Shown: piece by piece, positions 23,208 through 53,110 of the stretch
Layout of the letters: the number at the start of each line of letters is the position of its first letter
How positions within the stretch are numbered: position 1 is the stretch's first letter
Assembly: GCA_000146045.2 (NCBI GenBank)
Contig: BK006935.2
Span: 166,219-230,218 of the forward strand
Direction of reading: 5' to 3'
DNA: 64,000 bases
From: TPA_inf: Saccharomyces
Lineage: Eukaryota
The notes under the pieces: generated by a model
The model's database searches: none
What the model saw: only the letters and a program-made list of their open reading frames with translations
Told to the model about the DNA's origin: nothing
Made by a program: the position numbers and the translations under genes

Positions 23208-23538
23208 TGTTGGAATAAAAATCAACTATCATCTACTAACTAGTGTTTACGTTACTAGTATATTATCATATACGGTGTTAGAAGATGACGCAAATGATGA
23301 GAAATAGTCATCGTTTTCAACGGAAGCTGAAATACAAGGATTGATAATGTAATAGGATCAATGAATATCAACATATAAAACGATGATAATAATATTTATA
23401 GAATTGTGTAGAATTGCAGATTCCCTTTTATGGATTCCTAAATCCTCGAGAAGAACTTCTAGTATATCTACGTACCTAATATTATTGCCTTATTAAAAAT
23501 GGAATCCCAACAATTATCTCAAAATTCCCCCAATTCTC
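23208..23538 (+). mobile_element. Solo Ty1/Ty2 LTR (delta element), ~331 bp
   Basis: TGTTGGAATAAAAATCAACTATCATCTACTAACTAGT...CATATACGGTGTTAGAAGATGACGCAAATGATGAGAAATAGTCATC...AATGGAATCCCAACAATTATCTCAAAATTCCCCCAATTCTCA, a near-consensus delta. Confidence 0.88.
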
Positions 23539-29967: not shown

Positions 29968-32249
29968 GCTGTGCAATGTAGTCACAATAACACTCGTTCA
30001 TTTGTATCCATTGCGAATGCCGGTACATCGGAAAACAGGATAGGACCTATTTAATTATATAGTATGAAGTATTCATAACTTCTTGAGGCATCAATACATC
30101 ATATTCCATGAGCTGCGTGGCATTCATACTCATTGATTTAAAGGTTTTTTATTTTCATGGAAAAGATTAACCGGGCTGAACGAAATATATTAAAGATGCT
30201 AAAACTTATGCTTTCATTGACTTTCAATAGTGTCCACTAACCAAAAAAAAAAACTACTCTAACAAGGGATCCCCATGGATTCAAAGCCGATACCAAACAG
30301 ATATTACTCTGCATAGAATTCAAAATATTATCCATATAAAGATGGGAAAGAATTCCAAAAGGAAAATTCTGCTCTAGAAGGTCACAAAACTAGTAAGAAG
30401 TTGACCCCCCTGCCATTAAAAAACGTTTTTAACAGCTCTAGCAATATTCTAATTTCGAAAGTGCTCTCAAAAGAATTTATTCATTTGCGAAAAAAAGAAT
30501 ATCTCAAAATTTTCTCGATCACGTACAACATCGTAGTATTTAAAGGATTATTAAGTCAACGAATAATTTCCACAAGAAAGGTACCTCTAGTTTTGGTGAT
30601 GAAGCAAGACAATAACTGGCAAGGGCTCTCACTAAATATCAACCCCTTTCAAATAAAAAAAGGATCATGGCTGGCAGCGCCCACAACAATTAAACTCTGT
30701 TACTATCAAAAAACATTGAGCCCAAGAATGGAATAAAATTTTCACTACACCTCGGACATGGATTTGTACATGTCCTATTATCCTGTAATTTTGACATATA
30801 CTGATATGGACCTCTTGTTTCGTATAAATCGCTATTTATTTCCCCAGATAACTAAAGAAAATCCTTCAACCCAGCGTTCTATATTACTATATTCTCAACC
30901 CGCCGTTTTCCTGCTGTGCGATAATTCTCATTCAATACTACCATTTCAAACCTAGAAAAGGGTGTCTTTATTAAAACTGTAAGAAAATTTTATCATGAAC
31001 TCTGATGAAAAGTCTTCGGAAGATCAACTTTTTGATTTTTCAAAAATGAAAGAAACTGTTGTCTCCATTTATGGCCTCATATCTGAAGGAAATTCGTCTG
31101 CTATTAGTCATACCACTATCTTCTTCTTGAAGCTGCATTTCAAGGTTGATTAGGAAGCATCTAACAATCATTCGATAGGGAAAACAGAAAGGCCGTTACA
31201 GTTTTTTAAAAATATCAATATCAAGAGAAAGAACTAGGGATATTGCAAAATCAAAACTTCTGATATTTGGTTTTACGTGAAAATTACCAACACTTAAACG
31301 TTAAAATTTCAAACTATCTACTGAAATATAAATTTTCAGTCAAAGAGATGAAACGATTATTTTCTTGAGTAATTCGTTGTCACAATTTAACAGAAAATTA
31401 CTGTTTTTTTCAAGTAGTTCACAAAGATACTCAAACTAAGATCATGGAGACGTCGGCAAGCAATTGATTGTTAGTGATTATCAAAACTCATTAGCTTCGG
31501 TAAAACTACATAGATTGAAAATCAGTAGTAACATACAACATGGTTTCCATGAGATTACAAACCGGCCAACCTAATGCTTTCAAAAATTCTTTGCTTACTG
31601 ATTCACGGTGGCCAAGAAGCATATAAATCTGTACTTTGCAGTAAAAAACAGATGGTATTGCTCATTCCCAGCGATTGCCAAATACGATTCATAACAGATT
31701 GACTTATCTTTTTCGAAAGCTCTATCATATGGCTTTGAGTAATAAGGTGAGATTTTTTTGGTGATGAAAATAAATACGGTGCCTTGATGCAAAATTTTTA
31801 GCCACAAACCTCTCTTCAGTCCCACATGATTCACCTGATTACGACTCACTATTTCATCTGTTCCATAAATCTCGGCTTTTTATATACAGAACATTAGACG
31901 ACGGGAAGAGAAAAACGTCAGTATAACCCACTTTTGTTCGTAAAAAAAGGTTATTCACTTCTACTCCGTACTAATCAATGACTTTAATGGTGAAACCATG
32001 ATGAGGAGAGTAACACGATGTAATTGTCATAAACTAATATTATCCCATATTAGTTTACTGACGGCTACAAGTGAGAATATATACTTTAAGAGTGTAACCA
32101 TACCAGTAATTGGGTTCCAAACAAGTTTGTGAGGCGCGTGTGCTGAAAGTAAAAAAAACTTACCTTAATAACGCAATTTCTGGCGAGGTTAAAATATTAA
32201 ATATAAAAAGCCTTCCAAGTAATTTTGCCCACTAAAATGTAACACAAAG

Positions 32250-32700
32250 CTCCACTGGTTCTCGGCTTCTTGTTCTTTCAAAAGGATCTTCAAATCCGCT
32301 TCCACTTAAGCAGCCTTCTGCTACGACTTCTTCTGAGACACTCGGTTTCGCGCGGGCACTTCTGCCCACCAAAAAAGTTTATTTTCCGGAAAGCTTATTT
32401 CTAAATAAACTTCTGAGGAATTTTTTTTCCGCAAATTTCCATGCAACGTCGAACTCTCAAATTCTCACGAGATTATTTGACTTGCTTTCCTTTCCCCCTT
32501 TTTCCACGCACTACGTCAATGCAAGTGATCCGCTTTTGAAGAAGCAAAAAATACTTCTTTCAGCTCGTACCGGCATTTTTATTATTTGTCAAAACTGGCG
32601 TTTGGAAACCAGCTCTTCACTTTTTCTTCGTGGTTTCTTCGTGGTTTTTTCGAGAGTTTTGTTTAAGCCCCTTTTATGGATGCATGAGAAAAAAAAAAAG
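32250..32700 (+). repeat. Copy A of a ~400-bp dispersed element (YAR060C-like sequence), ~4.5 kb upstream of FLO1
   Basis: Shares with copy C blocks such as GGCT(C)CTTCTTGTTCT..AAAGGATCTTCAAATCCGCTTCCAC.TA..AGC..T.CTGCTACGACTTCTTCTGA, CTCACGAGATT.TTTGAC and GAAGAAGCAAAA, in the same orientation. Confidence 0.7.
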
Positions 32701-33128
32701 GTTTGCTACAACCATCTCAGGTCTCTTGAAGGATAGTTCGAAGCTCGCCTGACCGTCTTTGGGTGACCAGGCTTGGTTTTCAGTTTTTTTTAGCTCATTG
32801 AGATATGTGATCCCGTTCCTAGATATTATGAGGGAATTTTATATATCAAATTGATTTTCACCGCGAATTCCAGAAGGATGGGCAAAAGAGGGCTTGTTGG
32901 CGTGGGAGGATGGTCGCGGCTGAAAATTTTCACCACGAGCAGTTTCTTGTGAGACATCCTAATACTTTTGCATTTTTACCAAGCAGTCGTCCGTAGCAAA
33001 GCATAGGTTAGTAATAACAATGTGCAAATAAAAAACTATCTTACAGGCAATTATTTTGTGGCAAAGCAAGGTCCATGTTTTCTTGAAAGGTAAGAAGTGG
33101 CTTTGGGACAGCTCATATAGACAGATTT

Positions 33129-33490
33129 AAGTTTTTGATCTGAGAAGCGAATGAAATGTCTTCAGTATCATTCAATTTAGCATCCTTTTCATTGACTTTG
33201 AATGTTTTACCGCCCCAATCAATGCCATAATTAGCACCCCATGGATGGTCGTTTAAGGCCTGAAGAGTTATGGAGCATTGTGAATAAAATAAAAAATTAC
33301 TTAGGAAAAGCATCGTGTTGAAGTAAAGCAAAGAGCAGCAAAAAATAAATGGAGTAAATATGAGAGAAATACAGATCAGAATGGTTCGTTCAAGAGTCCA
33401 TACTATAAACCCGATGGTGACTTTTGCACAAAAAAACAATGGTTTCGAAGATTGTGCTCATATTTTCTGAGCTCAACATATGCTCGCAAA
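33129..33490 (+). pseudogene. Degenerate direct duplicate of the last ~390 bp of SWH1 (C-terminal ~120 codons plus ~20 bp of 3' UTR)
   Basis: 33129-33490 aligns with 29599-29990, for example aagtttttgatctgagaagcgaatgaaatgtcttcagt against aagtttctgatatggaaagcaaatgaaaggccttcagt, and ...ggtcgtttaaggcc...aagcatcgtgttgaagtaaa.caaag.gcagcaaaaaa...gattgtgct.atattttct.agct. The frame is broken by a stop in the fifth codon. Confidence 0.75.
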
Positions 33491-36400
33491 AACACCTACT
33501 AATTGATGTTTACCAAGAACGCGAGTACAGTCATATATAGATGTAGTAGAGTTGAGATATTCTGAATCGGAAGTACGATATTTCAATTCCTATATTGCAA
33601 AAATTTATATATTTGGAGCTTCTTGAAAGAAAAAGTGTCCAACATCCTGCATGAAGTTTGATCACTTTAGCTGGTCCCATTCGAAGAACCTTTTTTTTTT
33701 TTTTTTTTTTTGAGATTCTTCATATTCTGTTATTAAATTTTTAGACTTTAATTTTTACTTTCTATGTAACGTTCACTCTTACCCTAAATATTAAACTATT
33801 TGATAAAATATTACACTGAAAGGTGTTACAACTTTTCCTAGACCAACCTTAATATAAACGTTACGATATAAAATAAACAGTAATTTTAAGATTCCATTGT
33901 TGAATGTGACACGTAACTCTAGGCCATACCTGGTTTAGTATTTTTTAAAAGAACTCTTGCTACAGCATATTTTACGTTTGCATAAAAATAAAAGAAAAGC
34001 TTCCTTATGAAACACTGGTTAAGAAAAGAAAATGGAGTGGTTACATACTCCAAAATAAATTACTCTTAATATCTGTTTATCCAATGAGGAGCAGATCTCA
34101 AAGATAATCAGACTTGTTATTGAAGCAATTGAAGTAAGTCTTCCATTGAAATCACGCTAATTATTAAGCAATATGGTGGATTAAACAACTCTGACGGGAC
34201 CGTACTACTTGATGAAAAGTTATATACAATATTGAATAACAGCATAATGCTGTATGATGTTGAGCGGAAGATTGTATAAAAATGTCCTTTTCTAAAATCA
34301 TGAAAAACGAACCCTTTAAAGTAATTTTGTAGCGAAATTTAACCTCACGAGTTCATGATCATAACTCGTTATCATTTTTGTAATATTGAATCGGTCTCTA
34401 TAGAGCCTCATGAGAAGATAGAGGACCCGAAATAATTCTCCCTTCAAACATTATGGCCAATAAGTGTCAGGAAGTGAAGCATTGACATGACAGCAGCACA
34501 TTAAAACTCTATTGAATATAAATACGATCCACGACATGTCGTTTACAAAGCGCTAAAAACTCATGAGCCAACTATTCCCTAAATTTCCAAGATCTATCAT
34601 ATATTTTTCCCTAATTTTCCAAGAGGAACCTCCATAAAATAATGCAGAAAAACATTTGTTTGATCTATTTTAAAAGGCATATCGCATGTTATAGTGAATC
34701 TGAAGATTGCTTCTCTCGTCAGTATTAATGCACTATATTACGTTTCAAATAATTCGTAGATTGTCTCAAGTTTTCAGTATATTTGCCTTCATGACCCACC
34801 GGTCCTCTTCCCTCAAGTGCTCAACGATGGGAGCTTCAGAAAAATCCAGCAGCATAGTTGAGTTCTGATTCTCTCCTTGGTAGTTTTTTCCTTTGGTGAT
34901 TTCGGATTCATAATGAAAATGTTTCGTATATTCTATGACTAAAGTTGTTATTGTTGTAAGTATTTCTGCTTCCTCTTGCAACAATTCCGCTCCCACTTAT
35001 AATGCACCGAGGTGAATTGGTCATCCTTACGAAAATACCCAGATAGAAATGGAGTAGTTGCGTGATCGTTTACTGCATCTTTTGCGCCTTTTAATCAATC
35101 TTGACGTGGATATCTTGTTTTGCTTGAACCACCACCTGTATTGCTGGTATAAATCACCATATTAACCATCGTTTTCAATCAACGCAACTTTTAGTGTATT
35201 GTCTGCAACATCTGATTTCCCTCTGGTAAGTCACCTAATCTAAAATCTCTATTTTGAATCCACGGAGACATACGTTTGAAAGATATAAAAGAGTTCATTG
35301 AAAAGTCTAGCGTCACAACTGACATTAAAATACTTAAATATGAACCAAAATTTTTTGGCTTTTATTTTCAATGCAATCATTATCTGCCTATACAGGAAAC
35401 GCTTTATTTGGCTCAATAATATGATCATGTTTGTCTGAAGTTGGCAATAAAAGAAACTAAGAAGAGCCACTAAACTTATTTTATGATATGGGAAACACAG
35501 AAAACACTCCAAAAATTTTGGTACAAGAACCTGAAAATAGAACAAAGAAAGAGGCGAGGTTTGGTACATCTAATTTACGTGACCTAGACGTTGCTCACCT
35601 TATGTTAATAGCTTATCAGAATTACAAGTAATTACTTGTAGGAACATCCTCTACTAGTGAATATGAAAGAGCAGAGGTTAGCTCCGTCTCAACCAATTTT
35701 GTACAAGTCGTTGAAAAGGACGGCTCTACTGTAGACAGGTCGATTCAAAGTCTGGTCTCAAAATAGAAGGTAAAATATTATTGAACAAAAGACCACTAAA
35801 AGGCTATGGTATGTCCAATAAGATGCAAAATAGACATTTCACTCGCTAATCGTTAGTGGGATTATATCTTACTATACTCCTTATCTCATTGAATGGCACT
35901 AGTCGATCGAGGAACAAAAAAGGATCGAACCGATTAGCACGGATTTCCTTAAGTAATTTAAATTACCAAAGAAGATCCACATCAGCAGTCGAATGTTCAA
36001 GATGCCGTAAGTTTAAAATCTTTCGTATCTTTCCCCGATCCTGTCTTTCATCAATGAACTTGAATATCAAGAGTGAAAAAAACTCATATGGCTTCTCTTG
36101 AAGAGTTAGAAAGATAGGCACATGCCAATTGTGTGCATAGCACTTACTACTCAACGATTTCACAACCTAGCATAATACGCGAAAAAAAAAGTGCATTTAT
36201 TTAGGTAAGTCTCATTACCTAAACGCCAGTTTGTTTCACGTAATTGGTAACGATGAGGGAACCGCAGTAGAAAAAACTTTCATTCACAAACGATTAAAGT
36301 GTTATGCTAGCCAGTTTCAGGCTTTTTGTTTTATGCAAGAGAACATTCGACTAGATGTCCAGTTAAGTGTGCGTCACTTTTCCTACGGTGCCTCGCACAT

Positions 36401-37184
36401 GAATGTTATCCGGCGCACGATACTTATCACCGAAAAACCTTATTCTACGGAAAACCTTATTTACATTAAAGTTGGAAAAATTTCCTCTTTTTCCTAATAA
36501 GGTGGAGCTTTTGGCTTCCAGTATGCTTTCACGGAATTATTTCTCATGTACATTTAGCTCCATTTCCAGTGCCTCCGATAGGGAGGCATCATGGTACTAC
36601 CGTGACGGAGAATACGTAGGCTGACTTTTTCGTCAGTTTGTTGTCCGTTTACAAAATTGGTGAATGAATTCTAGCCTTCCTCTGCTCATTAATTGCCCTC
36701 ACAAGAATTTGGAAGTGCGTAGAACAGGTAAAAGATTGTACTACAGAGGTATTGTGGAACCTTCTACAGTACTTCGGAATACACCTAAAAGGTTGTTGGA
36801 TGCTAAATTTAGCAAAAGTCTTTTTTAGCTCACTATTAGGCTTGTTAAAGTCTGAAATTGTTGAAAGGCACTCAAAAAGATAAATCAACAATCAGCATTA
36901 ACGGCACAGTTGAAAGAGTCACCCACTTGAAATTAGCTCGGTTATCAAATATAATTATCTCTGGTAAAGAGCTCTGCAGCAGGGTTAATCTATTCGCATA
37001 CTTACGCTGTAGGAACATTTTATTATTAGGATCCGACTACTGCCTACATATTTATTCGGAAGGCATGATGTCGAAAATTTTTGAGCTTATAAAAGGAACA
37101 TATTTCACTCTTGCTCGTTTGATGTAAGCTCTCTTCCGGGTTCTTATTTTTAATTCTTGTCACCAGTAAACAGAACATCCAAAA

Positions 37185-40100
37185 ATGACAATGCCTCATC
37201 GCTATATGTTTTTGGCAGTCTTTACACTTCTGGCACTAACTAGTGTGGCCTCAGGAGCCACAGAGGCGTGCTTACCAGCAGGCCAGAGGAAAAGTGGGAT
37301 GAATATAAATTTTTACCAGTATTCATTGAAAGATTCCTCCACATATTCGAATGCAGCATATATGGCTTATGGATATGCCTCAAAAACCAAACTAGGTTCT
37401 GTCGGAGGACAAACTGATATCTCGATTGATTATAATATTCCCTGTGTTAGTTCATCAGGCACATTTCCTTGTCCTCAAGAAGATTCCTATGGAAACTGGG
37501 GATGCAAAGGAATGGGTGCTTGTTCTAATAGTCAAGGAATTGCATACTGGAGTACTGATTTATTTGGTTTCTATACTACCCCAACAAACGTAACCCTAGA
37601 AATGACAGGTTATTTTTTACCACCACAGACGGGTTCTTACACATTCAAGTTTGCTACAGTTGACGACTCTGCAATTCTATCAGTAGGTGGTGCAACCGCG
37701 TTCAACTGTTGTGCTCAACAGCAACCGCCGATCACATCAACGAACTTTACCATTGACGGTATCAAGCCATGGGGTGGAAGTTTGCCACCTAATATCGAAG
37801 GAACCGTCTATATGTACGCTGGCTACTATTATCCAATGAAGGTTGTTTACTCGAACGCTGTTTCTTGGGGTACACTTCCAATTAGTGTGACACTTCCAGA
37901 TGGTACCACTGTAAGTGATGACTTCGAAGGGTACGTCTATTCCTTTGACGATGACCTAAGTCAATCTAACTGTACTGTCCCTGACCCTTCAAATTATGCT
38001 GTCAGTACCACTACAACTACAACGGAACCATGGACCGGTACTTTCACTTCTACATCTACTGAAATGACCACCGTCACCGGTACCAACGGCGTTCCAACTG
38101 ACGAAACCGTCATTGTCATCAGAACTCCAACAACTGCTAGCACCATCATAACTACAACTGAGCCATGGAACAGCACTTTTACCTCTACTTCTACCGAATT
38201 GACCACAGTCACTGGCACCAATGGTGTACGAACTGACGAAACCATCATTGTAATCAGAACACCAACAACAGCCACTACTGCCATAACTACAACTGAGCCA
38301 TGGAACAGCACTTTTACCTCTACTTCTACCGAATTGACCACAGTCACCGGTACCAATGGTTTGCCAACTGATGAGACCATCATTGTCATCAGAACACCAA
38401 CAACAGCCACTACTGCCATGACTACAACTCAGCCATGGAACGACACTTTTACCTCTACTTCTACCGAATTGACCACAGTCACCGGTACCAATGGTTTGCC
38501 AACTGATGAGACCATCATTGTCATCAGAACACCAACAACAGCCACTACTGCCATGACTACAACTCAGCCATGGAACGACACTTTTACCTCTACTTCTACC
38601 GAATTGACCACAGTCACCGGTACCAATGGTTTGCCAACTGATGAGACCATCATTGTCATCAGAACACCAACAACAGCCACTACTGCCATGACTACAACTC
38701 AGCCATGGAACGACACTTTTACCTCTACATCCACTGAAATCACCACCGTCACCGGTACCAATGGTTTGCCAACTGATGAGACCATCATTGTCATCAGAAC
38801 ACCAACAACAGCCACTACTGCCATGACTACACCTCAGCCATGGAACGACACTTTTACCTCTACATCCACTGAAATGACCACCGTCACCGGTACCAACGGT
38901 TTGCCAACTGATGAAACCATCATTGTCATCAGAACACCAACAACAGCCACTACTGCCATAACTACAACTGAGCCATGGAACAGCACTTTTACCTCTACAT
39001 CCACTGAAATGACCACCGTCACCGGTACCAACGGTTTGCCAACTGATGAAACCATCATTGTCATCAGAACACCAACAACAGCCACTACTGCCATAACTAC
39101 AACTCAGCCATGGAACGACACTTTTACCTCTACATCCACTGAAATGACCACCGTCACCGGTACCAACGGTTTGCCAACTGATGAAACCATCATTGTCATC
39201 AGAACACCAACAACAGCCACTACTGCCATGACTACAACTCAGCCATGGAACGACACTTTTACCTCTACATCCACTGAAATCACCACCGTCACCGGTACCA
39301 CCGGTTTGCCAACTGATGAGACCATCATTGTCATCAGAACACCAACAACAGCCACTACTGCCATGACTACAACTCAGCCATGGAACGACACTTTTACCTC
39401 TACATCCACTGAAATGACCACCGTCACCGGTACCAACGGCGTTCCAACTGACGAAACCGTCATTGTCATCAGAACTCCAACTAGTGAAGGTCTAATCAGC
39501 ACCACCACTGAACCATGGACTGGTACTTTCACCTCTACATCCACTGAGATGACCACCGTCACCGGTACTAACGGTCAACCAACTGACGAAACCGTGATTG
39601 TTATCAGAACTCCAACCAGTGAAGGTTTGGTTACAACCACCACTGAACCATGGACTGGTACTTTTACTTCTACATCTACTGAAATGACCACCATTACTGG
39701 AACCAACGGCGTTCCAACTGACGAAACCGTCATTGTCATCAGAACTCCAACCAGTGAAGGTCTAATCAGCACCACCACTGAACCATGGACTGGTACTTTT
39801 ACTTCTACATCTACTGAAATGACCACCATTACTGGAACCAATGGTCAACCAACTGACGAAACCGTTATTGTTATCAGAACTCCAACTAGTGAAGGTCTAA
39901 TCAGCACTACAACGGAACCATGGACCGGTACTTTCACTTCTACATCTACTGAAATGACGCACGTCACCGGTACCAACGGCGTTCCAACTGACGAAACCGT
40001 CATTGTCATCAGAACTCCAACCAGTGAAGGTCTAATCAGCACCACCACTGAACCATGGACTGGCACTTTCACTTCGACTTCCACTGAGGTTACCACCATC

Positions 40101-41798
40101 ACTGGAACCAACGGTCAACCAACTGACGAAACTGTGATTGTTATCAGAACTCCAACCAGTGAAGGTCTAATCAGCACCACCACTGAACCATGGACTGGTA
40201 CTTTCACTTCTACATCTACTGAAATGACCACCGTCACCGGTACTAACGGTCAACCAACTGACGAAACCGTGATTGTTATCAGAACTCCAACCAGTGAAGG
40301 TTTGGTTACAACCACCACTGAACCATGGACTGGTACTTTTACTTCGACTTCCACTGAAATGTCTACTGTCACTGGAACCAATGGCTTGCCAACTGATGAA
40401 ACTGTCATTGTTGTCAAAACTCCAACTACTGCCATCTCATCCAGTTTGTCATCATCATCTTCAGGACAAATCACCAGCTCTATCACGTCTTCGCGTCCAA
40501 TTATTACCCCATTCTATCCTAGCAATGGAACTTCTGTGATTTCTTCCTCAGTAATTTCTTCCTCAGTCACTTCTTCTCTATTCACTTCTTCTCCAGTCAT
40601 TTCTTCCTCAGTCATTTCTTCTTCTACAACAACCTCCACTTCTATATTTTCTGAATCATCTAAATCATCCGTCATTCCAACCAGTAGTTCCACCTCTGGT
40701 TCTTCTGAGAGCGAAACGAGTTCAGCTGGTTCTGTCTCTTCTTCCTCTTTTATCTCTTCTGAATCATCAAAATCTCCTACATATTCTTCTTCATCATTAC
40801 CACTTGTTACCAGTGCGACAACAAGCCAGGAAACTGCTTCTTCATTACCACCTGCTACCACTACAAAAACGAGCGAACAAACCACTTTGGTTACCGTGAC
40901 ATCCTGCGAGTCTCATGTGTGCACTGAATCCATCTCCCCTGCGATTGTTTCCACAGCTACTGTTACTGTTAGCGGCGTCACAACAGAGTATACCACATGG
41001 TGCCCTATTTCTACTACAGAGACAACAAAGCAAACCAAAGGGACAACAGAGCAAACCACAGAAACAACAAAACAAACCACGGTAGTTACAATTTCTTCTT
41101 GTGAATCTGACGTATGCTCTAAGACTGCTTCTCCAGCCATTGTATCTACAAGCACTGCTACTATTAACGGCGTTACTACAGAATACACAACATGGTGTCC
41201 TATTTCCACCACAGAATCGAGGCAACAAACAACGCTAGTTACTGTTACTTCCTGCGAATCTGGTGTGTGTTCCGAAACTGCTTCACCTGCCATTGTTTCG
41301 ACGGCCACGGCTACTGTGAATGATGTTGTTACGGTCTATCCTACATGGAGGCCACAGACTGCGAATGAAGAGTCTGTCAGCTCTAAAATGAACAGTGCTA
41401 CCGGTGAGACAACAACCAATACTTTAGCTGCTGAAACGACTACCAATACTGTAGCTGCTGAGACGATTACCAATACTGGAGCTGCTGAGACGAAAACAGT
41501 AGTCACCTCTTCGCTTTCAAGATCTAATCACGCTGAAACACAGACGGCTTCCGCGACCGATGTGATTGGTCACAGCAGTAGTGTTGTTTCTGTATCCGAA
41601 ACTGGCAACACCAAGAGTCTAACAAGTTCCGGGTTGAGTACTATGTCGCAACAGCCTCGTAGCACACCAGCAAGCAGCATGGTAGGATATAGTACAGCTT
41701 CTTTAGAAATTTCAACGTATGCTGGCAGTGCCAACAGCTTACTGGCCGGTAGTGGTTTAAGTGTCTTCATTGCGTCCTTATTGCTGGCAATTATTTAA
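37185..41798 (+). CDS. FLO1: Lectin-like flocculin, 1537 aa: N-terminal PA14/mannose-binding domain, 18 x 45-aa tandem repeats, Ser/Thr-rich stalk, GPI signal
   Basis: Signal peptide, PA14-type domain (...[29 protein letters not shown]...[34 protein letters not shown]...), a massive tandem array, and a C-terminal hydrophobic GPI-attachment tail. Confidence 0.95.
38016..40446 (+). repeat. 18 tandem copies of a 135-bp (45-aa) repeat inside FLO1, in near-identical sub-blocks
   Basis: Unit ~[44 protein letters not shown]. Two subtypes ([18 protein letters not shown] and [18 protein letters not shown]) each repeat several times, with long runs of 100% identical nucleotides. Confidence 0.9.
40890..41290 (+). 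repeat. Three imperfect ~50-aa repeats in the FLO1 C-terminal stalk ([46 protein letters not shown])
   Basis: Visible in the translation between residues ~1235 and ~1370. Ser-rich 21-bp-type repeats precede them at about 40540-40640. Confidence 0.8.
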
Positions 41799-44769
41799 TA
41801 AAATTCGCGTTCTTTTTACGTATCTGTGTATCTTTTCTTTGCTAATTATACGCTGACATGAATTATTTTTTAACTGTTTCTCCTCCATACTTTCAAATAT
41901 TCAAATTGACTAAATGATAATTCTTGCGCTTCTTATTTTGAAAAAGTAGATATGTGTATCATAAAGAAAACGTTATTATTATTGTCTTAGGCAACAAAAA
42001 TCCATGAAAAGAATTTTACCGTTATCGATATCATTGTATTTATTTTATTTATTTATTCAATTTTTTTTTTTTTGGTTTATATCCTGCAAACAACACTTCG
42101 AATTCAATTCGATATTTCATAAGTTACAACTAACACTTATAGAAACCGATGTATGAGTACTTATTATTAACGAGGAAAAATGCCCTATTTTCTTTAGCAA
42201 TTAATGAACCATCGCCAACTTTTGCTTTAACAATTATTGCCATTTTCAGCAGTACTAACGTAAGATCTAGTGTGGTTCGCTTAGGATGTTTTCGAGTAGA
42301 AATCTGCTGCACATGCCACACGCAGTACTTGAAACTTGAAATAATGGTGATAATTAGTTATTTAAAGTATGTTAATCTTCCTTGTTCTTTTATATTTATT
42401 TCGAATTCTTTTGCACTAGTATTTAAAATATCAGCAGAGGTGTAAAAGTGCACCAAAATTATTGTAAAACTACTTGCCCTAAAATTGATACTTCATACTT
42501 GACATATTCAAAAGGGGTCCAAGTATAGATGCATCAAAAAAAAAAATTATCCGATGATGAGCAAATGGTAGCTTTTCGTTCCCAGGAAGTGTAGTAGTTC
42601 CATGAAGTCTAATGAGACTTTGGAAAAAGGTTTGTCACGAGCACCTAACTATTGTATTTTGGAATTTTGATAAACTTCAAAACGGGAACGAAGTGTTAAA
42701 CTTAGATGCGGTTGATTTAAGCTTTAAAAGAGGAAAATAATGACTGATGATAAGAAGTCAACAACGATTCAAAGCAGGTGAATTTCCATTACGTTTCGCT
42801 TTTCAATTGAAAAAAATTTGGTGGTTATTCATTTCTTGCTTGACCTCTTTACTTTTTATACTTCTGTGATGAGAAGCAAGTTCGAGGATTTTACGATAAA
42901 GCCTACTGGTTATATTTGTATAAATTAGAACGTTGTCCTTATTTCTCTTTTCGAACAGTATCAAAATAAAGTTTTTGATTAGGGCCAGATTCTCTTCAAG
43001 GAAGAGATACCTCACGTCTGTAATATCTAAGAGCTAATGTTTCGATCGAACTTTCCTTTGCTTTTTTTCTGGATCTCATAATGTCCCACTGTATGTATGT
43101 GCCCTCGCACAGCTTTGCTCATCATAGACATTAATCATTGGTTGTACGATAAAAATATCGCAAAAATTATTCTAACGTTCAGATTAGATTCCGGCCATAT
43201 TTCTGACATTTGTTTTATTAATAAAAATTTGGCGAATGTTTTGATAACTTGATAACTGCTGATATTTCATTGTTGAAAAGGCATGATATTAGATGCACAA
43301 AGTATATTATAACTTATTATCAGAGATATAGGAACAAAAAAAAAGGGAAATTCATATCTATATGTGAAAATACCATTATTTCCTCTTCTATTTAATATAC
43401 TGTCCTTAATTTTCATATTACATTATCAACTTTTGCATTTCAGTGTCCATTAAATCTTGGGACCATTTTCTCAATCTTCATGTCGTGTTTTCACACCGTA
43501 TATAATATACTGGTAATATAAGTACTAGTCGATAGATCGCAGTTGAGTCTTATCCCAACAGTTAATGATTCACTGTGCTTTCTGTTGCTGTAGAATTTCT
43601 GAGGCATTGTCGCTCTCTTCTATGTGATGCTACAACGGAACTAGGCTTCTTATATATCGTGGTCCTACAAGATCTTGGTATCTCGTTTGCTTACTTTGAA
43701 GCTTCACTGATATATAGTATTTAAGCCACTTTCATGTTCATGGATAATCGTAATTGTACTACGCTGGTACCAGTTATGAACCCTATCAAATCATCATTGA
43801 ACACTGCTATTTTTAACTAATCAAGATGTGTATGCGGCGTACTTTATAATTTCACGACACTATTGAAAGCAAACTAAAAATCAAGTAAATACCTATCCAA
43901 GTTGCGGGCTCTGGATTTATGTGGCCTTAAATTTTCGACCTATGGTTCGCTATTCAATATGAGAAAACCAAAATTAGGTACAAGTACTGATTACGTCCGT
44001 GATTCGAAAAGCAGCGTTGAAAGATTACAAGATTTTGCGTGTCCAGGCCGACACTTAACTTTAAGGTCTCGACTTAGTAACATGAGTTGCCAAAAGTTTT
44101 TTTCTCCTATCTGAATATGGGGAACCGGAATTTGTCTTTGACCTGACTTTCAAATTGTTGCATATGTAAAAAAAAACAGAAGAAATATGATCTTCTTCTT
44201 CTAGCGATGCAAAAGGATTCATTACAAATCGTCGCAAAGGCCGACAAGTTGCAGTATATTCACATTGCTTATTTGAAGTATGTTTGTATACACATCGATA
44301 GTATTCATTAACACCACAACTGCTGTGTATACTATGTCAAACAGCATAATAAAGCCCGTCATTTTTGTACCCGCTCATTTCCAATAGGCATCTAAACTTA
44401 CAAATGTGGTACACTACTTCGAATTCATTAATCGATATTGAATGCTAAAAGTCTGCGATTTCTTCCTCAACGTTCAAAAATCTCATCCAAGGCATAATCC
44501 CACATATTGAAGATCGCTACCAATTGTTACGGGCGAACTGAGGTTTTGGAAATGAGCTTGTACTTAGTAAATTTCTCTTTGCTTGCATCTTTTTCTTCCA
44601 TGCCAAAAAATAAAAGATACTCATTTTAAAAGCGCAGCCATATTGACTAAGTAAGTAATCATAATACTATGAGTAATTTTTGAGTACTGTGCTCATTTAC
44701 TAGCTGCTTTTCTGAGAAAGATCCTCGATAATCAATTCCAGGTTAGTGGGGCCCTTCTACGGCTTCTTC

Positions 44770-45010
44770 TAACCAATTGTTCCCCGTGAGTTGCTTTCTC
44801 TGAAAACCTTATTATACATTAGAGTTATAAGAAAATTTTCTTTTTCCCGTAGATTAACCTGCAGTGCCGAACTTCTAGATGTCACACCAGACCGTTTGAC
44901 ACCGCCATTTTCCTTCCTTTTCGGAAAAATGTGCCGATAAATGGTAAGACGCGACGCCACTGCTACGAATATTACGCTTATGATGAAGCAAAAGGAAAAA
45001 GCAAGTTCCC
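44770..45010 (+). repeat. Copy B (partial) of the dispersed YAR060C-like element, 3 kb downstream of FLO1
   Basis: tttcccgtagattaacctgcagtgccgaa...cgccgataaatggtaagacgcgacg...tgatgaagcaaaaggaaaaag aligns with copy C tttcccgtagattgacttgcagcgtcaaaa...cgccgataaagaagtagtacaacag...tgatgaagcaaaagaggaagag. The minus-strand ORF 44769-44960 is a YAR060C-like fragment (LQVNLREKENFL against LQVNLRERRNFL). Confidence 0.7.
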
Positions 45011-45549
45011 CTTAAATTCGTATAACTGTTTCATCAATCTTTAGTTCTGGCATTTGAAAGTTAATTAAACTTTTCTTCGTGGTTTCTACAGGAGTTCTGC
45101 ATGTGCGTAATTCAAAGCCTGTGAAGGAAAAAGTATTGTCCTAAACAACGGTCGTAGAATACGTCAACTGTAGTTTAAAATATTTTCTGGCTCTACTCGG
45201 TGCGATAGGTCTGGCTCTTTTCTATTTACTTTTGTTTGGAGTTGTTGAGGCCGATACCCGTCTAGATGTAAATATGAAATAACAGTTCGAGGTTTTATTA
45301 CGAGAATGAAAAGGGTAATGGATTGGAGCATGTGTAAATGTCAATAGCAGAAAAAATTTACCGCAAATTGTTTCGTAGTCTTATCTTCATCGGACACTCA
45401 AGGGTTGCATAATTTTTACCCAAAGGAACAGTATACTTTTTTGATAAAAAAATCTTGTTACCTATACAGTATTGCAAGCATTTTCAGAAACTCGTCTTTT
45501 GAGTTCTAAATGCATCATACAACAACAACAACAATTTCTTATTACTGTG

Positions 45550-46600
45550 TCCTTTTGGGATTTTTCAGCCTTCCTAGCTTACCCAAAATAGCCTCTCAAG
45601 GTGAAAAAACCATGCCTGCAAGCGGATCTAAGGATGAGTAGCTAGATTACAATAAATCCTGAATTTTCTCTGAGTGTCAACTTTGTCATCGCTTGTTAAA
45701 GGGCTACTACGCTGAAAAAGAACCTGAACTCTGTTAATAGGTTGAAGATTTTATGACTTGGTATACTATTCCATACGGCTGCTCTCCTGATTGCGGTGGG
45801 TCATTGCTATAACAGTAAAATCAAGGAAGATAACAGGAAGAGTAACTTTAGTACAATAAATCTGTTGTCTTCCCGAGGATTATAATTGTTCGGCTTTCAC
45901 ACTAAGTTGAAAAGGGGGACTCAGGAAATGACAGGGTACGTTTTAGTTTCTCCAAATAAATCTTCCACACCCAGCTTCAATGTGGTAAACGGGGGAAAGT
46001 TGATTAATTGATGTTGGCACTTATATTTAACTGATGTAGAGAAGAACAACATACTACTAACGTCACAGTCAATTGTGCCAGTTTTCCAATCAAGTATTTC
46101 GAGATAATGTAAAAGTAATTGATATATGTTCGTACTGGTTTCCCAATTTCCGGGAAAAACTATGTACATGGGTGCAATTCCTTGTGGTTATTTCCTTTTA
46201 GGTTATATTGCCAACCACATCATAGTACTATTTGCGGTCACTTCAGAAGATATGTTTGCTCCTTTGATCATGATATAGACCAGGCCAACTGTACCGCTTC
46301 AGGCTTCAAAGCATTAGGAATAAGCACCACTATTACACAACCATAGAGCTACTCTTACTGTCACGTAGGTAAAACACTTGCTACTACACACACTCGTAGT
46401 GACTCATCTGACTATATTGCCGGTTGTTAAGAGGCACCAGTTAAGCACGCCATCAAGGGTACCGAATAATCTCTTCTGTATCAAGTATTCTACCTTTATG
46501 TCTGACCCACGTATTATGTGGAGCAATTACGTATTTTTCTCATATCAGCTTTGTTTTTACTCAACTTTGATATCTTAGAGAAACAGATCTTGATGTTACA
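45550..46600 (+). pseudogene. Heavily decayed FLO-family relic: N-terminal PA14-type domain plus one repeat and the start of the Ser-rich region
   Basis: The plus strand from ~45900 aligns with the FLO1 N-terminal coding region: ggaaatgacagggtacgttttagtttctccaaataaatcttccacacc against agaaatgacaggttattttttaccaccacagacgggttcttacacattc. The 46119-46346 ORF encodes YVCSFDHDIDQANCT...STTITQP (FLO1: [15 protein letters not shown]...STTTTTTEP). Region 46480-46560 resembles the FLO1/YAR062W segment encoding [14 protein letters not shown]. Many stops and frameshifts. Confidence 0.6.
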
Positions 46601-49600
46601 GCAAGGTCAGGAAAATATTTTGACAAAAACATACTAGTTTCATCCTTAGTAGTTGATTCTATGAATGCTGTACTTGAAAATATTGTTCATAAAATCCATA
46701 AGTTTTACCAACGGTATAATATCCTGCTATTAAATCTGCAATTGCTTTTGCGAAAAGAAGGAAAACATGCAAAACAAAAGCAAAAAAAAATTGGCACCCC
46801 AATTTCTTATAATATAATAATATAACGGAAGTACACCATGCTTTCAATAATAAGATGTTTCCTGAAAAGGGCAACTATCTGACTAGTTCAGAGCCATGCA
46901 AAAGTTAAGGATGAAAATGCCAAATAAGAAGATATTACGGAGTACATTCATTTCAAAAAGAAGAATGTATACTGCTTAGATAAGAAGATCAAGTTTTTAT
47001 ATTTCCGACCAAATAAGCCATCGAAAACTTTTGATGCACCAAACACCGTTCTTGAGAGCCAAGCACAGATGCAATTGTTCTGCCCTTCTTCCAAATTATG
47101 AATTGTGCATCATATCGTAAGGCCAGCCACATAAAAAAAAGGAGCAAAAAACTCAGTATACAGGCGAATATCCATCATACAGTCTAGCTGCCCTCACTAC
47201 TTCCAAAAAAATGGGCTAGTGTTGTACGGTTTATGCCATATATCTAGAGTTAGCATAACTATGCACTACCGCTTTTCGAACAAAAAGTTTGCGAAACCTA
47301 GTTCATTGAATATGACTTACCCAAAATGGATACCAAGATCCTAATAATAAAGTCAATAACTTGAATTTTAGGTGCCATTATTTCCAACAATCATTATAGG
47401 CTAACTCTACCAGCAGACAAGAATACCGTTCTTCTAGTTGAGCACATGGTCAAAATAGTCAATAAAAAACGCCCAGAAATGGCTGTAAATTAGTGTTTGT
47501 AGTACACAAAATAATTTCCTAATTCCTTCCAAATGGGGTTTTCAAAAAGCTGACTCACGTAATTGATCAATACTTCACTAAAGAAGAATCATATGAATAA
47601 AACTAAAATCAACACTAACTGAGAGACTTAGCGGCCAAAGCTTAATCATCATTACATAGAGTATATGAAGGGAGTAAGTGAATATGCAAGGGTGGGAAAC
47701 GGCAAAGCATTTTTATGCAAAAAGCGTATTTACAAATCCCGTAAACTCATGATGTGAATTTTGTAACCAGCTTTAGCTGAGATTATTTCTTTTGCAAAAG
47801 AAATATTCAATAAATTAACAATTTTCAAATAAATTACCCATCCATGGTCGATAACTTGCAAGAGAGATATCATCATTTGGCTTTTGTGATAAATTTACAA
47901 AACGTAATGTTGTATCGAGATATATTGAGTTACAAGTTTTCGTCTCTTTTTCCGAAGCGCCAGACTCCCGTATAAAAAATAAGGTTTATAGCGGGCATTA
48001 TGCGTAGATCAGGACTTAAATTTTTCATTGCAGAAGTCCAATTTCAGACTCAGTATGGTTTGTTGTAGTGCTGGTGTAAAAGATGGTGTTATTACTTAAG
48101 ACTGATTTGGTTGCTCAGGTATTTCATTCAATAAAATTGTGAAAGAGAACCTGGAATATAGAATGGAAATATATATCCTGCTACTAACCCCAATGGAAGG
48201 TGACGATCACTTCTTGTGCGTTCCAATCCCAGTTTTTGAATGTGCGAGTGGAAAAATTCTAGAGGAACAAATTGATATTTTCAAATCAGAATTCATCAAA
48301 TATATGTACTCTGTAAAAACCAAGGATGTGATGAAGTTGAGATATTGTCTTTATGGGAAATTGACTTCTTTGTTTAATATGAATAATGCAATTTTACTCC
48401 TCAGCTCAAGTAGTGTAAAGATTCAGTAGCCGTCATCAAATAGACTAAAAATTAAAAAATAAGATTCAATGTGGTATGATAATGATAGATGAGAAGAAAT
48501 TGCAAGAAAACGAATAAATACCTTGTCTCTTTGCACTGAATATCTTAAAGGACATACAGTCGCAATAACGTCTACTCATTGGTGTGTGTCAAAAACAGTA
48601 CGTTTATTATCTGGACAGCCAAAAAATAAGATCTATTCAAACATGGAATATAGCGTATTTTTATTTAATCACGGTACAATGGAGATATTTGCATGCCTAT
48701 AGAAACAAGTAATAGTTATCATATTATTTTCTAGATTTTGTCACTGAACTTTTCCACTAATGAATCCTATCAAAATTATATATCCAATATGGCTGCATTC
48801 CCAACTAAATATTAAAATGCCGCTAAGTATAAAATGTCTCCGCATCGGTAAAAAGCATTACAAATGCGTATTATACTAGCGAGAAAAAAGTATAAGTATC
48901 AATGCCAATCACCCTCTGACCATAAACTTTCTAAACATGAATAATAAAGGTGTTGAGAGTTATTATCCTAATTGATCAATTAATTTGAAGCAAAGTTATT
49001 ATGTTAAAGAAAAAGGGATGTCACAATCCTAACTATAATTTTTGCACTATACTCTGTAGGCGTACAAAATGGTTTGTACCGACTATATTCTCTTTATTTT
49101 TGACAATCCTTTACGATATATGATTAAGAATACCATGTTATTTTTATGAAAATCTGTGATTTTTTTGTTTTCATACACTTTTTATTTTTGTCACGTAGTG
49201 CACTTTGATTAATACAAAAAAAAATGCTGCAAAAGCATCGACTACATAAATTCATTAGGACGCATTCCTCATTACCACCTGGGTCTAATTTTTATTTTGA
49301 AATTGATATTATTCTTTATATGATGAGGTAAAAAGCATTATATTCGTTGTAAACTCATATACTTATCCTCATTTTAGGCACCATCAGGGACTAAGGGCTA
49401 AAGTATCAGAGCCGCATTTCAACAGTGTACAGAGATTTTAGAAACATTATCACGCACTGCCTTTTGCTTTGTTTACCCGTAATGAGTATACAGTGGATTT
49501 TCTGGTGCTAAAGCATATTGCCCTTTCGGCAATACTTGATGCCCTAAACATTTTCATCCTGGAACATACGAGTAAGAGCACATTTATGTGCCTATATTCC

Positions 49601-50938
49601 TCGTTTTTTACTGGTGCTGAATTTCTTATTTTCCACAGATAACAATCATGTTAATAAATTATGCACTGTGCTAATTTTTCAATTAAGGTTCTATTACCCC
49701 TCTATCACCGACAGAAACACGTAATGATGTGTTATTTCCATTATAATTCCGTAAGAATGGTGTTTATAGGTAGTCTAAAGAACGTGCATCAGAGAAGAAT
49801 AACTGTCGCAAAAAATGACTATTCTTTACCTTTTCAAACTTAACTGAGATAGTTATCTCTATTATTACCAGTGGCACACACGCGAACTACATCACTCACC
49901 ACTATCGTCTTAGGAACTCAAGATTTTATAGTAATGCAGCCGAAGACATTCAAGTCCTGAGAGAAAATGTAGACATTTTAAGAAAAGTACCGGAAATAAA
50001 GCACATGTAAAGCATTGAGCTCTGTACTCTATAAAAATTAGCTGCATTCAAACAACAATGTTTGAAATTTTTGCAAAAGTTATTGAAAAAGATTGCTGTT
50101 TTCAGCCTTGTTCAGATCATGTCTCAAAAATGAGAAACTGGAACTCTCATAATCAGTACCTCGTATTTTTTTTTCCTTATAGTTTCGTTATTAAAAATTT
50201 TTTTGCTGCTAATTTAAGTACGCTTTTGGTCATAAATGCTACCCACCAGTTGAATTATTGACATGATTAAAATACATTTCAGAACTTTACGGATTAAAAA
50301 CTTTAAAGAACCTTTCAATCCATGTTGCTGGAGGGCCATGAATCCACGAATTACAGCAAAAGAAGACAGTAACTACTTAGGGTTCAATAATTACTTGCAT
50401 AAACACACACTAACAACCAAATCGTACTAAAATTTGCAATTAACAAAACTCCATCATATCACGCTGAATTATGTAGGGCTTCTTAATGCAATAGGTTGCC
50501 TGAATTTTGCTTACTCGTGCTGCCGGGAACACTTAGCAGTTGGGAGGCCGTTTCTCCCATATATTTCATAATTTTCTGTCCTTCTTAGAGTAGGATGCTG
50601 AAAATCAAAAGAAGACCGTCAATAGGACCAGATTTTGTGGGTCAATTTTGGGCCAGACACATGATACCCTAGGAAGTTTAACGGTATACAACTCAAGGAC
50701 GAGGAGTATTCGGAAACTACCGGTTTTTAACAAGCTGCAAATTTCCAGTAGCTGTTTTGGTTGCGACTACGGATAAAAATTCATACTTTAGGAAGTGAAG
50801 CAAGATAAAAAATCATGCTGCATCCTAATTCGTGAAGTTTGTTAGGAATATTATTGTAAACAAGGAACCGTTTCAGTAAACTTGCTCTCTACTCTTCTAA
50901 GCTGTAATTTAAAAAAAGCGATAAAACAATGATTTTGA

Positions 50939-51274
50939 TTATCTGCAACTTCTGGAAACTCGAGATACTACGCTAGACGAGATACCTATTAATTGTTTTC
51001 CTAAAAAATCAGGAACAGTTCCTGGCAGCTTTCGGCTCCTTCTTGTTCTGGAAAGGATCTTCAAATCCGCTTCCACGTAGCAGTCCTCGCTACGACTTCT
51101 TCTGAAGTATTTTGATTTTTGGCTGCATTTACCTTTTATTGCCGAAAATCTTATTTTCCAAGAAAAAAGCTTATTTTGCATTAAGTTTAAAAAATTTCTT
51201 CTTTCCCGTAGATTGACTTGCAGCGTCAAAATTCCGGAGGCCTCACGAGATTTTTTGACATCGGTTTTTGACAT
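50939..51274 (-). CDS. YAR060C: Annotated small ORF of unknown function (111 aa within a 164-aa track ORF); probably non-coding and coincident with repeat copy C
   Basis: An ORF is present, but it lies entirely within a three-copy nucleotide repeat whose other copies do not preserve the frame. It is Lys/Arg/Ser-rich with no recognisable domain. Confidence 0.3.
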   Translation of the reverse strand: MSKTDVKKSREASGILTLQVNLRERRNFLNLMQNKLFSWKIRFSAIKGKCSQKSKYFRRSRSEDCYVEADLKILSRTRRSRKLPGTVPDFLGKQLIGISSSVVSRVSRSCR

Positions 51275-51440
51275 CTCTTTTTCCTTCCTTTTTCTTTCTT
51301 TTCCTGCGCACGCCGATAAAGAAGTAGTACAACAGACAACGTCAAAATGATCCTCTTGTGATGAAGCAAAAGAGGAAGAGTATACTCCTTTTCCGCTTGT
51401 ACAAATATTTTTTTTGATAATAAAATTTGGCACTTCAGAG
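51040..51440 (+). repeat. Copy C of the dispersed ~400-bp element, ~500 bp upstream of the YAR061W/YAR062W FLO pseudogene
   Basis: See copies A and B for the alignments. Same orientation in all three. Confidence 0.7.
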
Positions 51441-51906
51441 CTTATCGTATCTTCTCCCGGAGTTCCTCAAGACTTATACTTCAGCCCGTTTAGGAATGCA
51501 TAAAAGCAAATAGGATTCGTTACAACTGCTGCAGGACTCTTTAGGACTGCATCAAGGTAAGCCTCGCTGCACCTAAACGCAAAATGTGGTTGTAACCTTT
51601 TTAATTTTTTTCTTGAACTTGTTGAGTCGTAATAAATCGTTTCTGGGAAGTGGAAGGTAATAATGTAATGGAATCGGCGTTACTCGCATGTGCAGATATC
51701 AGCGACAAAAAGTGTTGTAGGGACGTTTCGATACCAAAATTTCCTAAATACAGCGCAGGAACATCACTACGCTAAACAAATCGTAGCGCATACATCTGAT
51801 CGAAAAAAGACAGTTCCCAAAACAATGACATATGAAGAGACCAGCATCAAAATTTTCATCATTAACAGCATGGCTAAAAGTTATTGTTTAATATACCCAT
51901 ACCTGA

Positions 51907-53110
51907 TTGACGAACCAAGAAATGCCTTATCACTATTTATTTTTGGCACTCTTCACCTACCTGGCCACGTCCAATGTTGTTTCAGGAAGTACACAAGCAT
52001 GCCTGCCAGTGGGCCCGAGGAAAAATGGGATGAATGTCAACTTTTATAAATACTCATTACTGGATTCAACAACGTATTCCTACCCGCAATATATGACTTC
52101 TGGATATGCCTCGAATTGGAATTAGGTTCCGTTGGCGGACAGACGGATTTCTCAATTGACTACGATCTTTCTTGTGTTATCTCTTCAGGAACTTTTAAAT
52201 GTGCTCAATCAGATGCTTATGGAAACTGGGGATGCAGAGGTCATAGTGAATGTTCAAAATAGCCAAGAAAGACCTATTGGAGTACTGATTTACTTGGTTT
52301 CTTACTATCCCAAAAAACGCTACTCTAGAAATGACAGGTTACTTTTTACCACCACAAACAAGTTCTTACACGTTCAGGTTTGCTAAGGTCGATGACTCTG
52401 CAATTCTATCAGTCGGTGGTAACGTTGCGTTCGAATGTTGTGCACAAGAACAACCTCCAATTACATCGACGGATTTTACAATCAATGGTATTAAGCCATG
52501 GCAAGGAAGTTTGCCTGATAACATCGGAGGGACTGTCTACATGTATGCAGGCTACTATTATCCGCTGAAGGTTGTTTACTCCAATGCCGTTTCCTGGGGC
52601 ACGCTTCCAATTAGCGTGGAATTGCCTGATGGTACTACTGTTAGTGATGACTTTGAAGGGTACGTTTACTCTTTTGACGATGATTTAAGTCAGTCAAATT
52701 GTACTATCCCTGATCCTTCAAAACATACTACTAGCATCGTCACAACTACTACCGAACTGTGGACTGGTACTTTTACTTCTACATCTACTGAAATGACCAC
52801 CGTCACCGGTACTAATGGTCAACCAACTGACGAAACCGTTATTGTTGCCAAAGCTCCAACCACTGCCACCTCATCCAGTTTGTCATCATCTTCTTCAGAA
52901 CAAATCACCAGCTCTATCACGTCTTAGCATCCAATTATTACTCCATTCTATCGCAGCAATGGAACTTCTGTAGTTTCTTCCTCAGTCATGTCTTCCTCGG
53001 TCATTTCTTCTTCTGCAACGACCTCCACTTCTATATTCTCTGAATCATCTAAATCATCCGTCATTCAAACCAGTAGTTCCACCTCTGGTTCTTCTGAGAG
53101 CGAAACAATC
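51907..53110 (+). pseudogene. YAR062W: FLO1-like flocculin pseudogene (annotated pieces YAR061W and YAR062W): N-terminal domain with frameshifts/stops, repeat array collapsed to one unit, abrupt 3' truncation
   Basis: MTNQEMPYHYLFLALFTYLATSNVVSGSTQACLPVGPRKNGMNVNFYKYSL... (51907-52125) matches the FLO1 signal peptide and N-terminus and then loses frame. 52331-52927 encodes [30 protein letters not shown]...[34 protein letters not shown]..., then a single 45-aa repeat and [18 protein letters not shown]. Homology to the FLO1 Ser-rich region continues to ~53110 and then stops. Confidence 0.85.

Follow-up and report, generated by a model that had tools for sequence, protein, structure and literature searches.

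A probable control module of FLO1-type promoters and its orphan copies in the FLO1 region of Saccharomyces chromosome I

FLO1 is a textbook model of long-range chromatin repression by Tup1-Cyc8 that is reversed by Swi-Snf. Two control sites have been described in its promoter: (i) the Flo8 site of S288C, AAAACCTTATTCTACGGAAAACCTTATT at -751..-724 from the ATG (Kobayashi et al. 1999, as cited in Fichtner et al. 2007, PMC2780560), and (ii) a single ~100-bp DNase I hypersensitive site at about -700, in which Tup1 and Cyc8 chromatin immunoprecipitation (ChIP) signals are focused within the 3.5 kb analysed (Fleming et al. 2014, PMC4316177). Here, we characterize a DNA element that is present in four copies (A, B, C and D) in a 64-kb stretch of Saccharomyces chromosome I (BK006935.2, positions 166,219-230,218; hereafter the window). 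The element is very likely a control module of FLO1-type promoters, the core of which corresponds to the two sites published for FLO1, the Flo8 site and the Tup1-Cyc8 hypersensitive site. An element of this kind, including the core, has been described before at FLO1; the new finding is its additional copies.

Flo8-Myc is present on the FLO1 promoter, Cyc8 is enriched there at a -585 amplicon (Lee et al. 2023), and Sfl1 is dispensable for FLO1 repression (Fichtner et al., PMC2780560). The promoter of FLO11 is likewise a large flocculin promoter with Flo8 control and Tup1-linked repression, but FLO11 is not a PA14-type gene and does not lie in the window. Control of FLO11 involves competition between Flo8 and Sfl1, and a toggle of two noncoding RNAs (ncRNAs), ICR1 and PWR1. 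A search for the motif string of the Flo8 site in the open-access literature returned Fichtner et al. 2007 only, and no description of a family-wide module, or of orphan copies, was found in the literature, access to which was partial.

Four copies around FLO1 and counterparts at other FLO loci

All coordinates are positions in the window, and copy positions are given relative to the ATG of the FLO-type gene or relic concerned. An exact-sequence look-up of the YAR060C product, which occurs on chromosome-sized S. cerevisiae contigs, assigns the window to the right arm of chromosome I, and gene names (SWH1, FLO1, YAR060C, etc.) follow the usual nomenclature of that chromosome. The copies and FLO1 are arranged as follows:

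32255-32700, + strand: copy A, an orphan module; core at 32350-32484, doubled TTATT motif at 32379-32399; 4.8 kb 5' of the FLO1 ATG
36311-36760, + strand: copy D, the FLO1 promoter's own module; core at 36423-36548 (-762..-637)
37185-41798, + strand: FLO1 open reading frame (ORF), 1537 aa, the gene that copy D would serve
44758-45060, + strand: copy B, an orphan module; a single GAAAACCTTATT at 44802-44813
51025-51450, + strand: copy C, the module of pseudogene YAR061W/YAR062W; core at 51120-51262, tripled TTATT motif at 51136-51175

The initial annotation, made from the letters of the window, had described three same-strand segments (A, B and C) that share long identical blocks, each 5' of a FLO-type sequence. 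The three segments are indeed related, and lie on one strand close to where they had been placed. Smith-Waterman local alignment gives 67% identity over 258 columns for A-C (z=29), 73% over 120 columns for B-C (z=24) and 64% over 112 columns for A-B (z=9), with all pairwise local scores above those of all 200 dinucleotide shuffles. The count of three was incomplete: lenient blastn paired B as well as C with 36424-36494, ~700 bp 5' of the FLO1 ATG, revealing the overlooked copy D (z=7-13 against A, B and C). A hidden Markov model (HMM) of the core finds exactly four copies in the window, every one on the + strand. Similarly, B and C do lie 5' of FLO-type sequences (a relic and YAR061W, respectively), but A is not FLO1's own copy, which is D. 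"Long identical blocks" was an overstatement; the longest exact runs are 25 nt (A-C), 14 nt (B-C) and 10 nt (A-B), and overall pairwise identity is 55-62%, with best stretches of 64-73%. Similarity of this kind is under-reported by a gapless repeat finder, which returned one weak pair only (B-C, 70% over 90 nt), and by plain blastn, which returned only 71 nt of A-C (87%) and 102 nt of B-C (75%); lenient blastn, Smith-Waterman alignment with shuffles, and nhmmer were required.

The longest exact run—the 25-mer AAAGGATCTTCAAATCCGCTTCCAC, common to A (32281-32305) and C (51052-51076)—contains a GGAT...ATCC inverted repeat. It sits in the 87%-identical stretch of 71 nt, which is far better conserved than the remaining A-C alignment and points to gene conversion or else to a factor site of its own.

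Comparison of copy D with the published FLO1 control sites reveals two correspondences. Firstly, the Flo8 site AAAACCTTATTCTACGGAAAACCTTATT lies in copy D at 36434-36461, a base-for-base match to the published site at the published position. Secondly, the core of copy D coincides with the ~100-bp Tup1-Cyc8 hypersensitive site. The AAAACCTTATT-type repeat of the Flo8 site is exact in D, doubled or tripled with 1-3 changes in A and C, and doubled with 1-3 changes in a copy at a FLO10-syntenic locus; a single repeat is present in copy B (exact GAAAACCTTATT), FLO5 and FLO9. Four matches to the doubled motif TTATT-N5-12-AAANNTTATT are present in 64 kb (0.18 expected), all of them on the + strand (one in A, one in D and two in C). 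Thus, the 28-bp Flo8 site, published for a single promoter, forms the core of a larger (~430-bp) module found across the FLO1-type family, including two gene-less orphans. The Flo8 dependence of the site has been tested at FLO1 only.

Two further observations concern copy D. At 36493-36502, it alone carries CCTAATAAGG, a CArG/Mcm1-like site, in place of which CCCGTAGATT is found in the other copies. According to Fleming et al. (PMC4316177), FLO1 stays repressed when the Mcm1 site is mutated. In another S. cerevisiae chromosome I assembly (L012, about 9240-9275), copy D carries AAAAACCTTATTTCACGGAAAAAAACCTTATT, which is similar to the Flo8-site variant of Sigma1278b, proposed by Fichtner et al. 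to be inactive.

The module is not confined to the window. Other FLO loci were fetched by exact-protein look-ups, and the core HMM was trained without the FLO10-syntenic locus (L018). The module, normally situated between about -900 and -450 from the ATG, was found 5' of FLO5 (L011/L017; at about -690, with ~300 bp that align with C), of a FLO9 allele (actual ATG at L014:9674; at about -695), of a chromosome VI FLO-like gene (L013; at about -694) and of the FLO10-syntenic gene beside SIR1. At the last of these, the out-of-training HMM match (E 1.4e-16) spans -946..-819, with the motif at -937 and a doubled AAACCTTATT. The motif starts at -751 from the FLO1 ATG in D, and at -778 from the YAR061W ATG (51922) in C. 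Across B, C, D, FLO5, FLO9, chromosome VI and the FLO10-syntenic locus, a module in the same orientation lies 0.6-0.95 kb 5' of a PA14-type FLO start; copy A, at -4814, does not conform. The core HMM matches all copies with E values of 1e-16 to 1e-28, including the one outside the training set. The occurrence of the module at these loci upholds the earlier suggestion of a cis element of FLO loci, which by the initial annotation's own account would have been weakened had the element been missing there.

Homology reaches beyond the 28-bp Flo8 site, with common blocks over about 140-430 bp. The most conserved core consists of one to three AAAnCTTATT repeats followed by CATTAAAGTT, a T-rich/CCG block, a TGCAGC...CTTC.AGA block and TCTCACGAGATTATTTGAC. 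Blocks common to nine independent copies are TTTnCTACGGC, AAAnCTTATTTTnCATTAnAGTT, TTnTTTnCCGnA, AnTAnCnTGCAGCnTCnAnCTTCnAGA and TTnTCAC...ATTnTTT. The proximal promoters (-450..-1) of the four units of the window, on the other hand, show no similarity above shuffles, and the right end of the duplication thus cannot be mapped. Decay of this flanking promoter DNA, together with a coding relic behind B that gives weaker matches than B does, suggests that the module has been under constraint, although gene conversion between copies may also have played a part.

We consider it extremely improbable that the element is a mobile or subtelomeric repeat (of long terminal repeat [LTR] or X/Y' type) that lies near FLO genes by chance. 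The region is subtelomeric, repeat-rich and home to delta LTRs, but the core HMM finds its four copies only in FLO units, every copy is oriented like a FLO unit and most lie at the same distance. Furthermore, the element does not match the three solo delta LTRs of the window:

16916-17245, + strand: solo delta LTR
23201-23528, + strand: solo delta LTR
43239-43564, - strand: solo delta LTR, between FLO1 and copy B

Copies B and C, along with their FLO relics, belong to the chromosome I-R/chromosome VIII-R block described by Katju et al. 2009 (PMC2728529; YAR050W-YAR068W versus YHR211W-YHR214W-A). At the chromosome VIII twin locus (L003), B is 99.1% and C 99.8% identical. The duplication between the two chromosomes is recent (Ks about 0, PMC2728529), whereas that among A, B, C and D within one block is far older, as their 55-62% identity attests. 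The YAR064W-to-PHO11/IMD block follows the chromosome VI FLO-like gene in one strain (L013) and is present at both ends of one chromosome I contig in another (L007/L008), indicating that this block moves among subtelomeres.

Duplication history and the YAR060C frame

The origin of the copies can be read from the features that surround them:

26401-29967: oxysterol-binding-protein gene, 1188 aa, from the ORF map (presumably SWH1)
33118-33529, + strand: pseudo-copy of the SWH1 3' end with ~60 nt of 3' flank, the start of a second duplication unit
45520-46343, + strand: decayed FLO N-terminal (PA14) coding relic, ATG-equivalent at about 45520
50939-51274, - strand: YAR060C, a 111-codon ORF that overlaps copy C on the opposite strand
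51922-52927, + strand: FLO-type pseudogene YAR061W/YAR062W (tblastn match to Flo1 aa 3-318 across three frames), which copy C would serve

The relic behind B is recognizable from two collinear matches to a Flo N-terminal profile (45886-46008, E 9e-5; 46119-46343, E 1e-5), a tblastn match with Flo1 aa 238-282, and collinear DNA matches. Copy B lies at about -760..-460 from the ATG-equivalent of the relic, with its motif at about -720. Their matching distances to FLO N-terminal sequence make B, C and D positional homologues, and B is probably the leftover of a FLO copy whose coding region has almost vanished. As for C, YAR061W RNA is a substrate of nonsense-mediated decay (PMC5393182), and MSS11 overexpression induces not only FLO1 and FLO11 but also YHR213W, the twin pseudogene, and the neighbour of YHR213W. 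These reports indicate that the promoter of YAR061W/YHR213W is still active.

Downstream of copy A, no FLO coding relic was found with the Flo N-terminal profile. The DNA between A and D instead contains the SWH1 pseudo-copy, which corresponds to the last ~380 nt of SWH1 and is 76% identical to 29588-29868 (lenient blastn). In an nhmmer comparison of unit 1 (29588-33117) with unit 2 (33118-37184), the SWH1 3' end at 29590-30027 matches 33120-33529 (E 3.8e-48), and A (32255-32622) matches D (36311-36684) collinearly (E 9e-7). S. eubayanus has one unit, with an SWH1-FLO spacer of 2966 bp; its match to the 3' part of A is weak (nhmmer, E 0.0017). In S. kudriavzevii, a single SWH1 3' end is accompanied by a single element (core match at L020:17734-17793, E 6e-7), which is orthologous to copy A: positions 31076-32599 of the window align to L020:16490-17935 (E 1e-10). 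The collinearity of A and D with two SWH1 3' copies, and the single unit in S. eubayanus and S. kudriavzevii, suggest that copy A arose in the S. cerevisiae lineage by tandem duplication of a ~3.5-4 kb unit that stretches from the 3' end of SWH1 to the FLO promoter. The initial annotation's alternative suggestion, a relic of the duplication unit, is thereby borne out on two counts, the SWH1 copies collinear with A and D and the FLO N-terminal sequence that lies equally far behind B, C and D.

Two observations were made in comparing the A-D region between genomes. In S. kudriavzevii (L020 13498-19760), the module remnant lies downstream of SWH1, but a tblastn search with Flo1 over 10 kb detects no FLO gene, and the gene called next encodes a 649-aa protein with no Pfam hit. 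In S. cerevisiae assembly L012 (5100-9400), comparison with window positions 32300-36500 gives 98-99% identity on both sides and 60-79%, still collinear, between A and D, the drop and the recovery falling inside A and D (84-90%). The intervening stretch may be either a deeply diverged haplotype or an introgression that ends in the two modules.

The overlap of YAR060C with copy C raises the question of whether the element encodes protein. It had been proposed that YAR060C is a copy of the element rather than a protein gene, and that indels destroy any common frame, leaving conservation at the DNA level. Both proposals agree with the data. YAR060C coincides with C; its frame is open only in C and in the 99.8%-identical chromosome VIII twin, while A, B, D and the FLO5, FLO9 and chromosome VI copies contain 1-8 stops in every minus-strand frame. 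Moreover, the indels that distinguish these copies from C are mostly not multiples of three (3-8 such indels per pair). Given the closed frames elsewhere, the most plausible reading of YAR060C is that of an ORF that arose by chance on a promoter module. That YAR060C/YHR212C is instead a genuine small protein gene, of which the other copies are pseudogenes, strikes us as highly improbable. Many S. cerevisiae assemblies (39 index blocks) do carry the same intact frame, and one 8-residue modified peptide has been assigned to YHR212C in a SUMO proteomics appendix, which is weak counter-evidence to a chance ORF. However, that assignment has a p of about 0.01 and appears in a list that includes other unnamed ORFs with systematic names only, the YAR060C product has no Pfam hit on record, the frame is lost in every other copy, and what is conserved corresponds to the regulatory sites published for FLO1, on the opposite strand.

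Co-repressor occupancy and the distal chromatin zone

Occupancy of the copies can be gauged from the ChIP-chip data of Hanlon et al. 2011 (PMC3084262), in which 282 Tup1 peaks were called at a false discovery rate below 0.001 on polymerase chain reaction product arrays, with chromatin sheared to 0.8 kb. The FLO1-proximal half-spacer iYAR047C-1, which holds D, has Tup1/Ssn6 Z scores of 4.83/1.83. Segment iYAR044W-1 scores 3.55/2.60 (its neighbours -0 and -2 score 0.61 and 2.04), and iYARCdelta8-0 scores 3.54/1.69. The YAR060C ORF probe, on copy C, scores 4.14/2.53, and its twin YHR212C 4.37/2.37. The FLO9 promoter (iYAL063C-0, Z 4.70) and the FLO10 promoter (iYKR101W-2, Z 3.82) are also among the bound segments, while iYAR053W is unbound (Z 0.29). 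Four of these segments, iYAR044W-1, iYAR047C-1, iYAL063C-0 and iYKR101W-2, are in the Phd1-bound list of the same study.

Two of the segments had to be positioned indirectly. Equal splitting of long spacers into pieces of at most about 1.5 kb, a rule consistent with the two pieces of the 1615-bp iYAR047C spacer, would place iYAR044W-1 at 31288-32607, where it holds the core of A. The LTR at 43239-43564 is most likely YARCdelta8, judging from its strand (it is the sole Crick-strand delta LTR), its order and the array naming; iYARCdelta8-0 would then lie at about 43565-45039, where it holds B. On this placement, A and B may still bind Tup1-Cyc8, and A may bind Phd1. Phd1/Sok2-type factors presumably recognize TGCA-containing sites, which would fit the conserved TGCAGC block.

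The first array segment after the Crick-strand LTR, a Tup1 peak, is also listed as Nrg1-bound. The ORF probe of YAR064W (53980-54279) is listed as Tup1-bound as well (Z 2.65), yet the core HMM places no module at YAR064W.

A long-range Tup1-Ssn6/Swi-Snf chromatin domain has been described 5' of FLO1 (Fleming and Pennings 2001, as cited in PMC3203618 and PMC13458707). According to Rizzo et al. (PMC3203618), Tup1-dependent chromatin differences at FLO1 fall at -1000..-1 and at -5000..-4000, and Tup1 enrichment peaks are mentioned in the plural. Copy D spans -874..-425 and copy A -4930..-4485, inside the proximal and the distal zone, respectively. The single Tup1-Cyc8 focus of Fleming et al. 2014 (PMC4316177) was found within 3.5 kb, a range beyond which copy A lies. 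Whereas the literature consulted treats the long-range domain as action at a distance from the proximal site, the sequence suggests a second, paralogous docking module in the distal zone. We tentatively propose, without holding it the likelier outcome, that A is a working second docking platform for Tup1-Cyc8/Phd1-type factors that causes the remodelling zone at 4-5 kb and may drive the intergenic transcripts seen in cyc8 mutants, and that B and C keep the co-repressor bound across the 20-kb FLO1-YAR062W block.

Those transcripts bear on another reading, in which the copies are mainly templates or promoters of ncRNAs that regulate FLO genes in cis, in the manner of ICR1/PWR1 at FLO11. Unannotated transcripts 5' of FLO1 are mentioned for cyc8 mutants, and an orphan upstream activating sequence such as A could drive them. 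We nevertheless judge this reading improbable: conservation follows blocks that resemble transcription factor sites, in a region that is nucleosome-free at FLO1, and no Rfam family reaches its gathering threshold in 30000-54000. The ncRNA-template idea of the initial annotation is thus left without support from Rfam, a search that covers curated families and in which transcription itself was not tested.

It is also conceivable, though on balance rather unlikely, that A and B, possibly along with C, are inert sequences without a present role in regulation, recognizable only because, among the remnants of duplicated FLO units, they are the youngest or the slowest to decay. The copies do come from duplications, and the drift of A and B set out below fits such a history. 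Against inertness, the module persists in units whose flanking promoter DNA is no longer recognizable, and B gives stronger matches than the coding relic that follows it. In addition, Tup1-Ssn6 peaks fall on the array element that holds C and on those that would hold A and B, Phd1 is listed on the element assigned to A, and FLO1 chromatin changes in a Tup1-dependent manner at -5000..-4000 (PMC3203618).

Several observations weigh against a shared, still active control module. Firstly, three concern sequence drift: copy A of S288C no longer matches the family consensus at the CATTAAAGTT block (a divergent allele still does), copy B is down to one repeat, and A is only modestly better conserved against S. 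kudriavzevii (50-55%) than its flanks (35-45%). Secondly, the core HMM returns no match 5' of the FLO genes fetched from S. eubayanus and S. uvarum. Thirdly, Flo8-binding and DNase evidence is confined to copy D; with a finer split of the array spacers, the peaks would fall beside A and B rather than on them; and the YAR060C and YHR212C probes cross-hybridize, making C and its chromosome VIII twin indistinguishable. Finally, A is closer to C than to D, and the 3' part of D is shared with the FLO10-type module. The candidate description of A as a simple twin of D is therefore only partly right; the history is more complex than one tandem duplication, and later exchange among FLO promoters is likely.

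A proposed mechanism and its implications

Taken as a FLO1-type promoter control module, the element would operate as follows. Repeated duplication of a FLO unit would have given rise to the four copies, with D serving FLO1 and C the transcribed pseudogene YAR061W/YAR062W. At FLO1, sequence-specific factors bind the nucleosome-free stretch of the module; Flo8, with Mss11, activates from the AAAnCTTATT repeats (the Flo8-dependent activation site), and Tup1-Cyc8, focused at the same stretch, sets up a repressive nucleosome array with Hda1 and Rpd3, opposed by Swi-Snf. The Flo8/Tup1-Cyc8 mechanism is established in the cited papers for FLO1 only. The paralogous copies may act likewise at FLO5, FLO9, FLO10 and the pseudogene, and the orphans A and B may retain the co-repressor, A thereby creating the distal remodelled zone.

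For genome annotation, YAR060C and YHR212C would drop off the list of candidate protein genes. For the FLO family, the analysis defines a family-wide promoter module with conserved blocks beyond the Flo8 site, and these extra blocks are candidates for the sites that recruit Tup1-Cyc8 at FLO1. For long-range repression, a 2026 paper still counts among the open questions how complexes that bind no further than about 500 bp from the start site can remodel chromatin at a distance of several kb. A paralogous docking module that lies exactly in the distal remodelled zone would offer a simple, testable hypothesis for this long-range effect.

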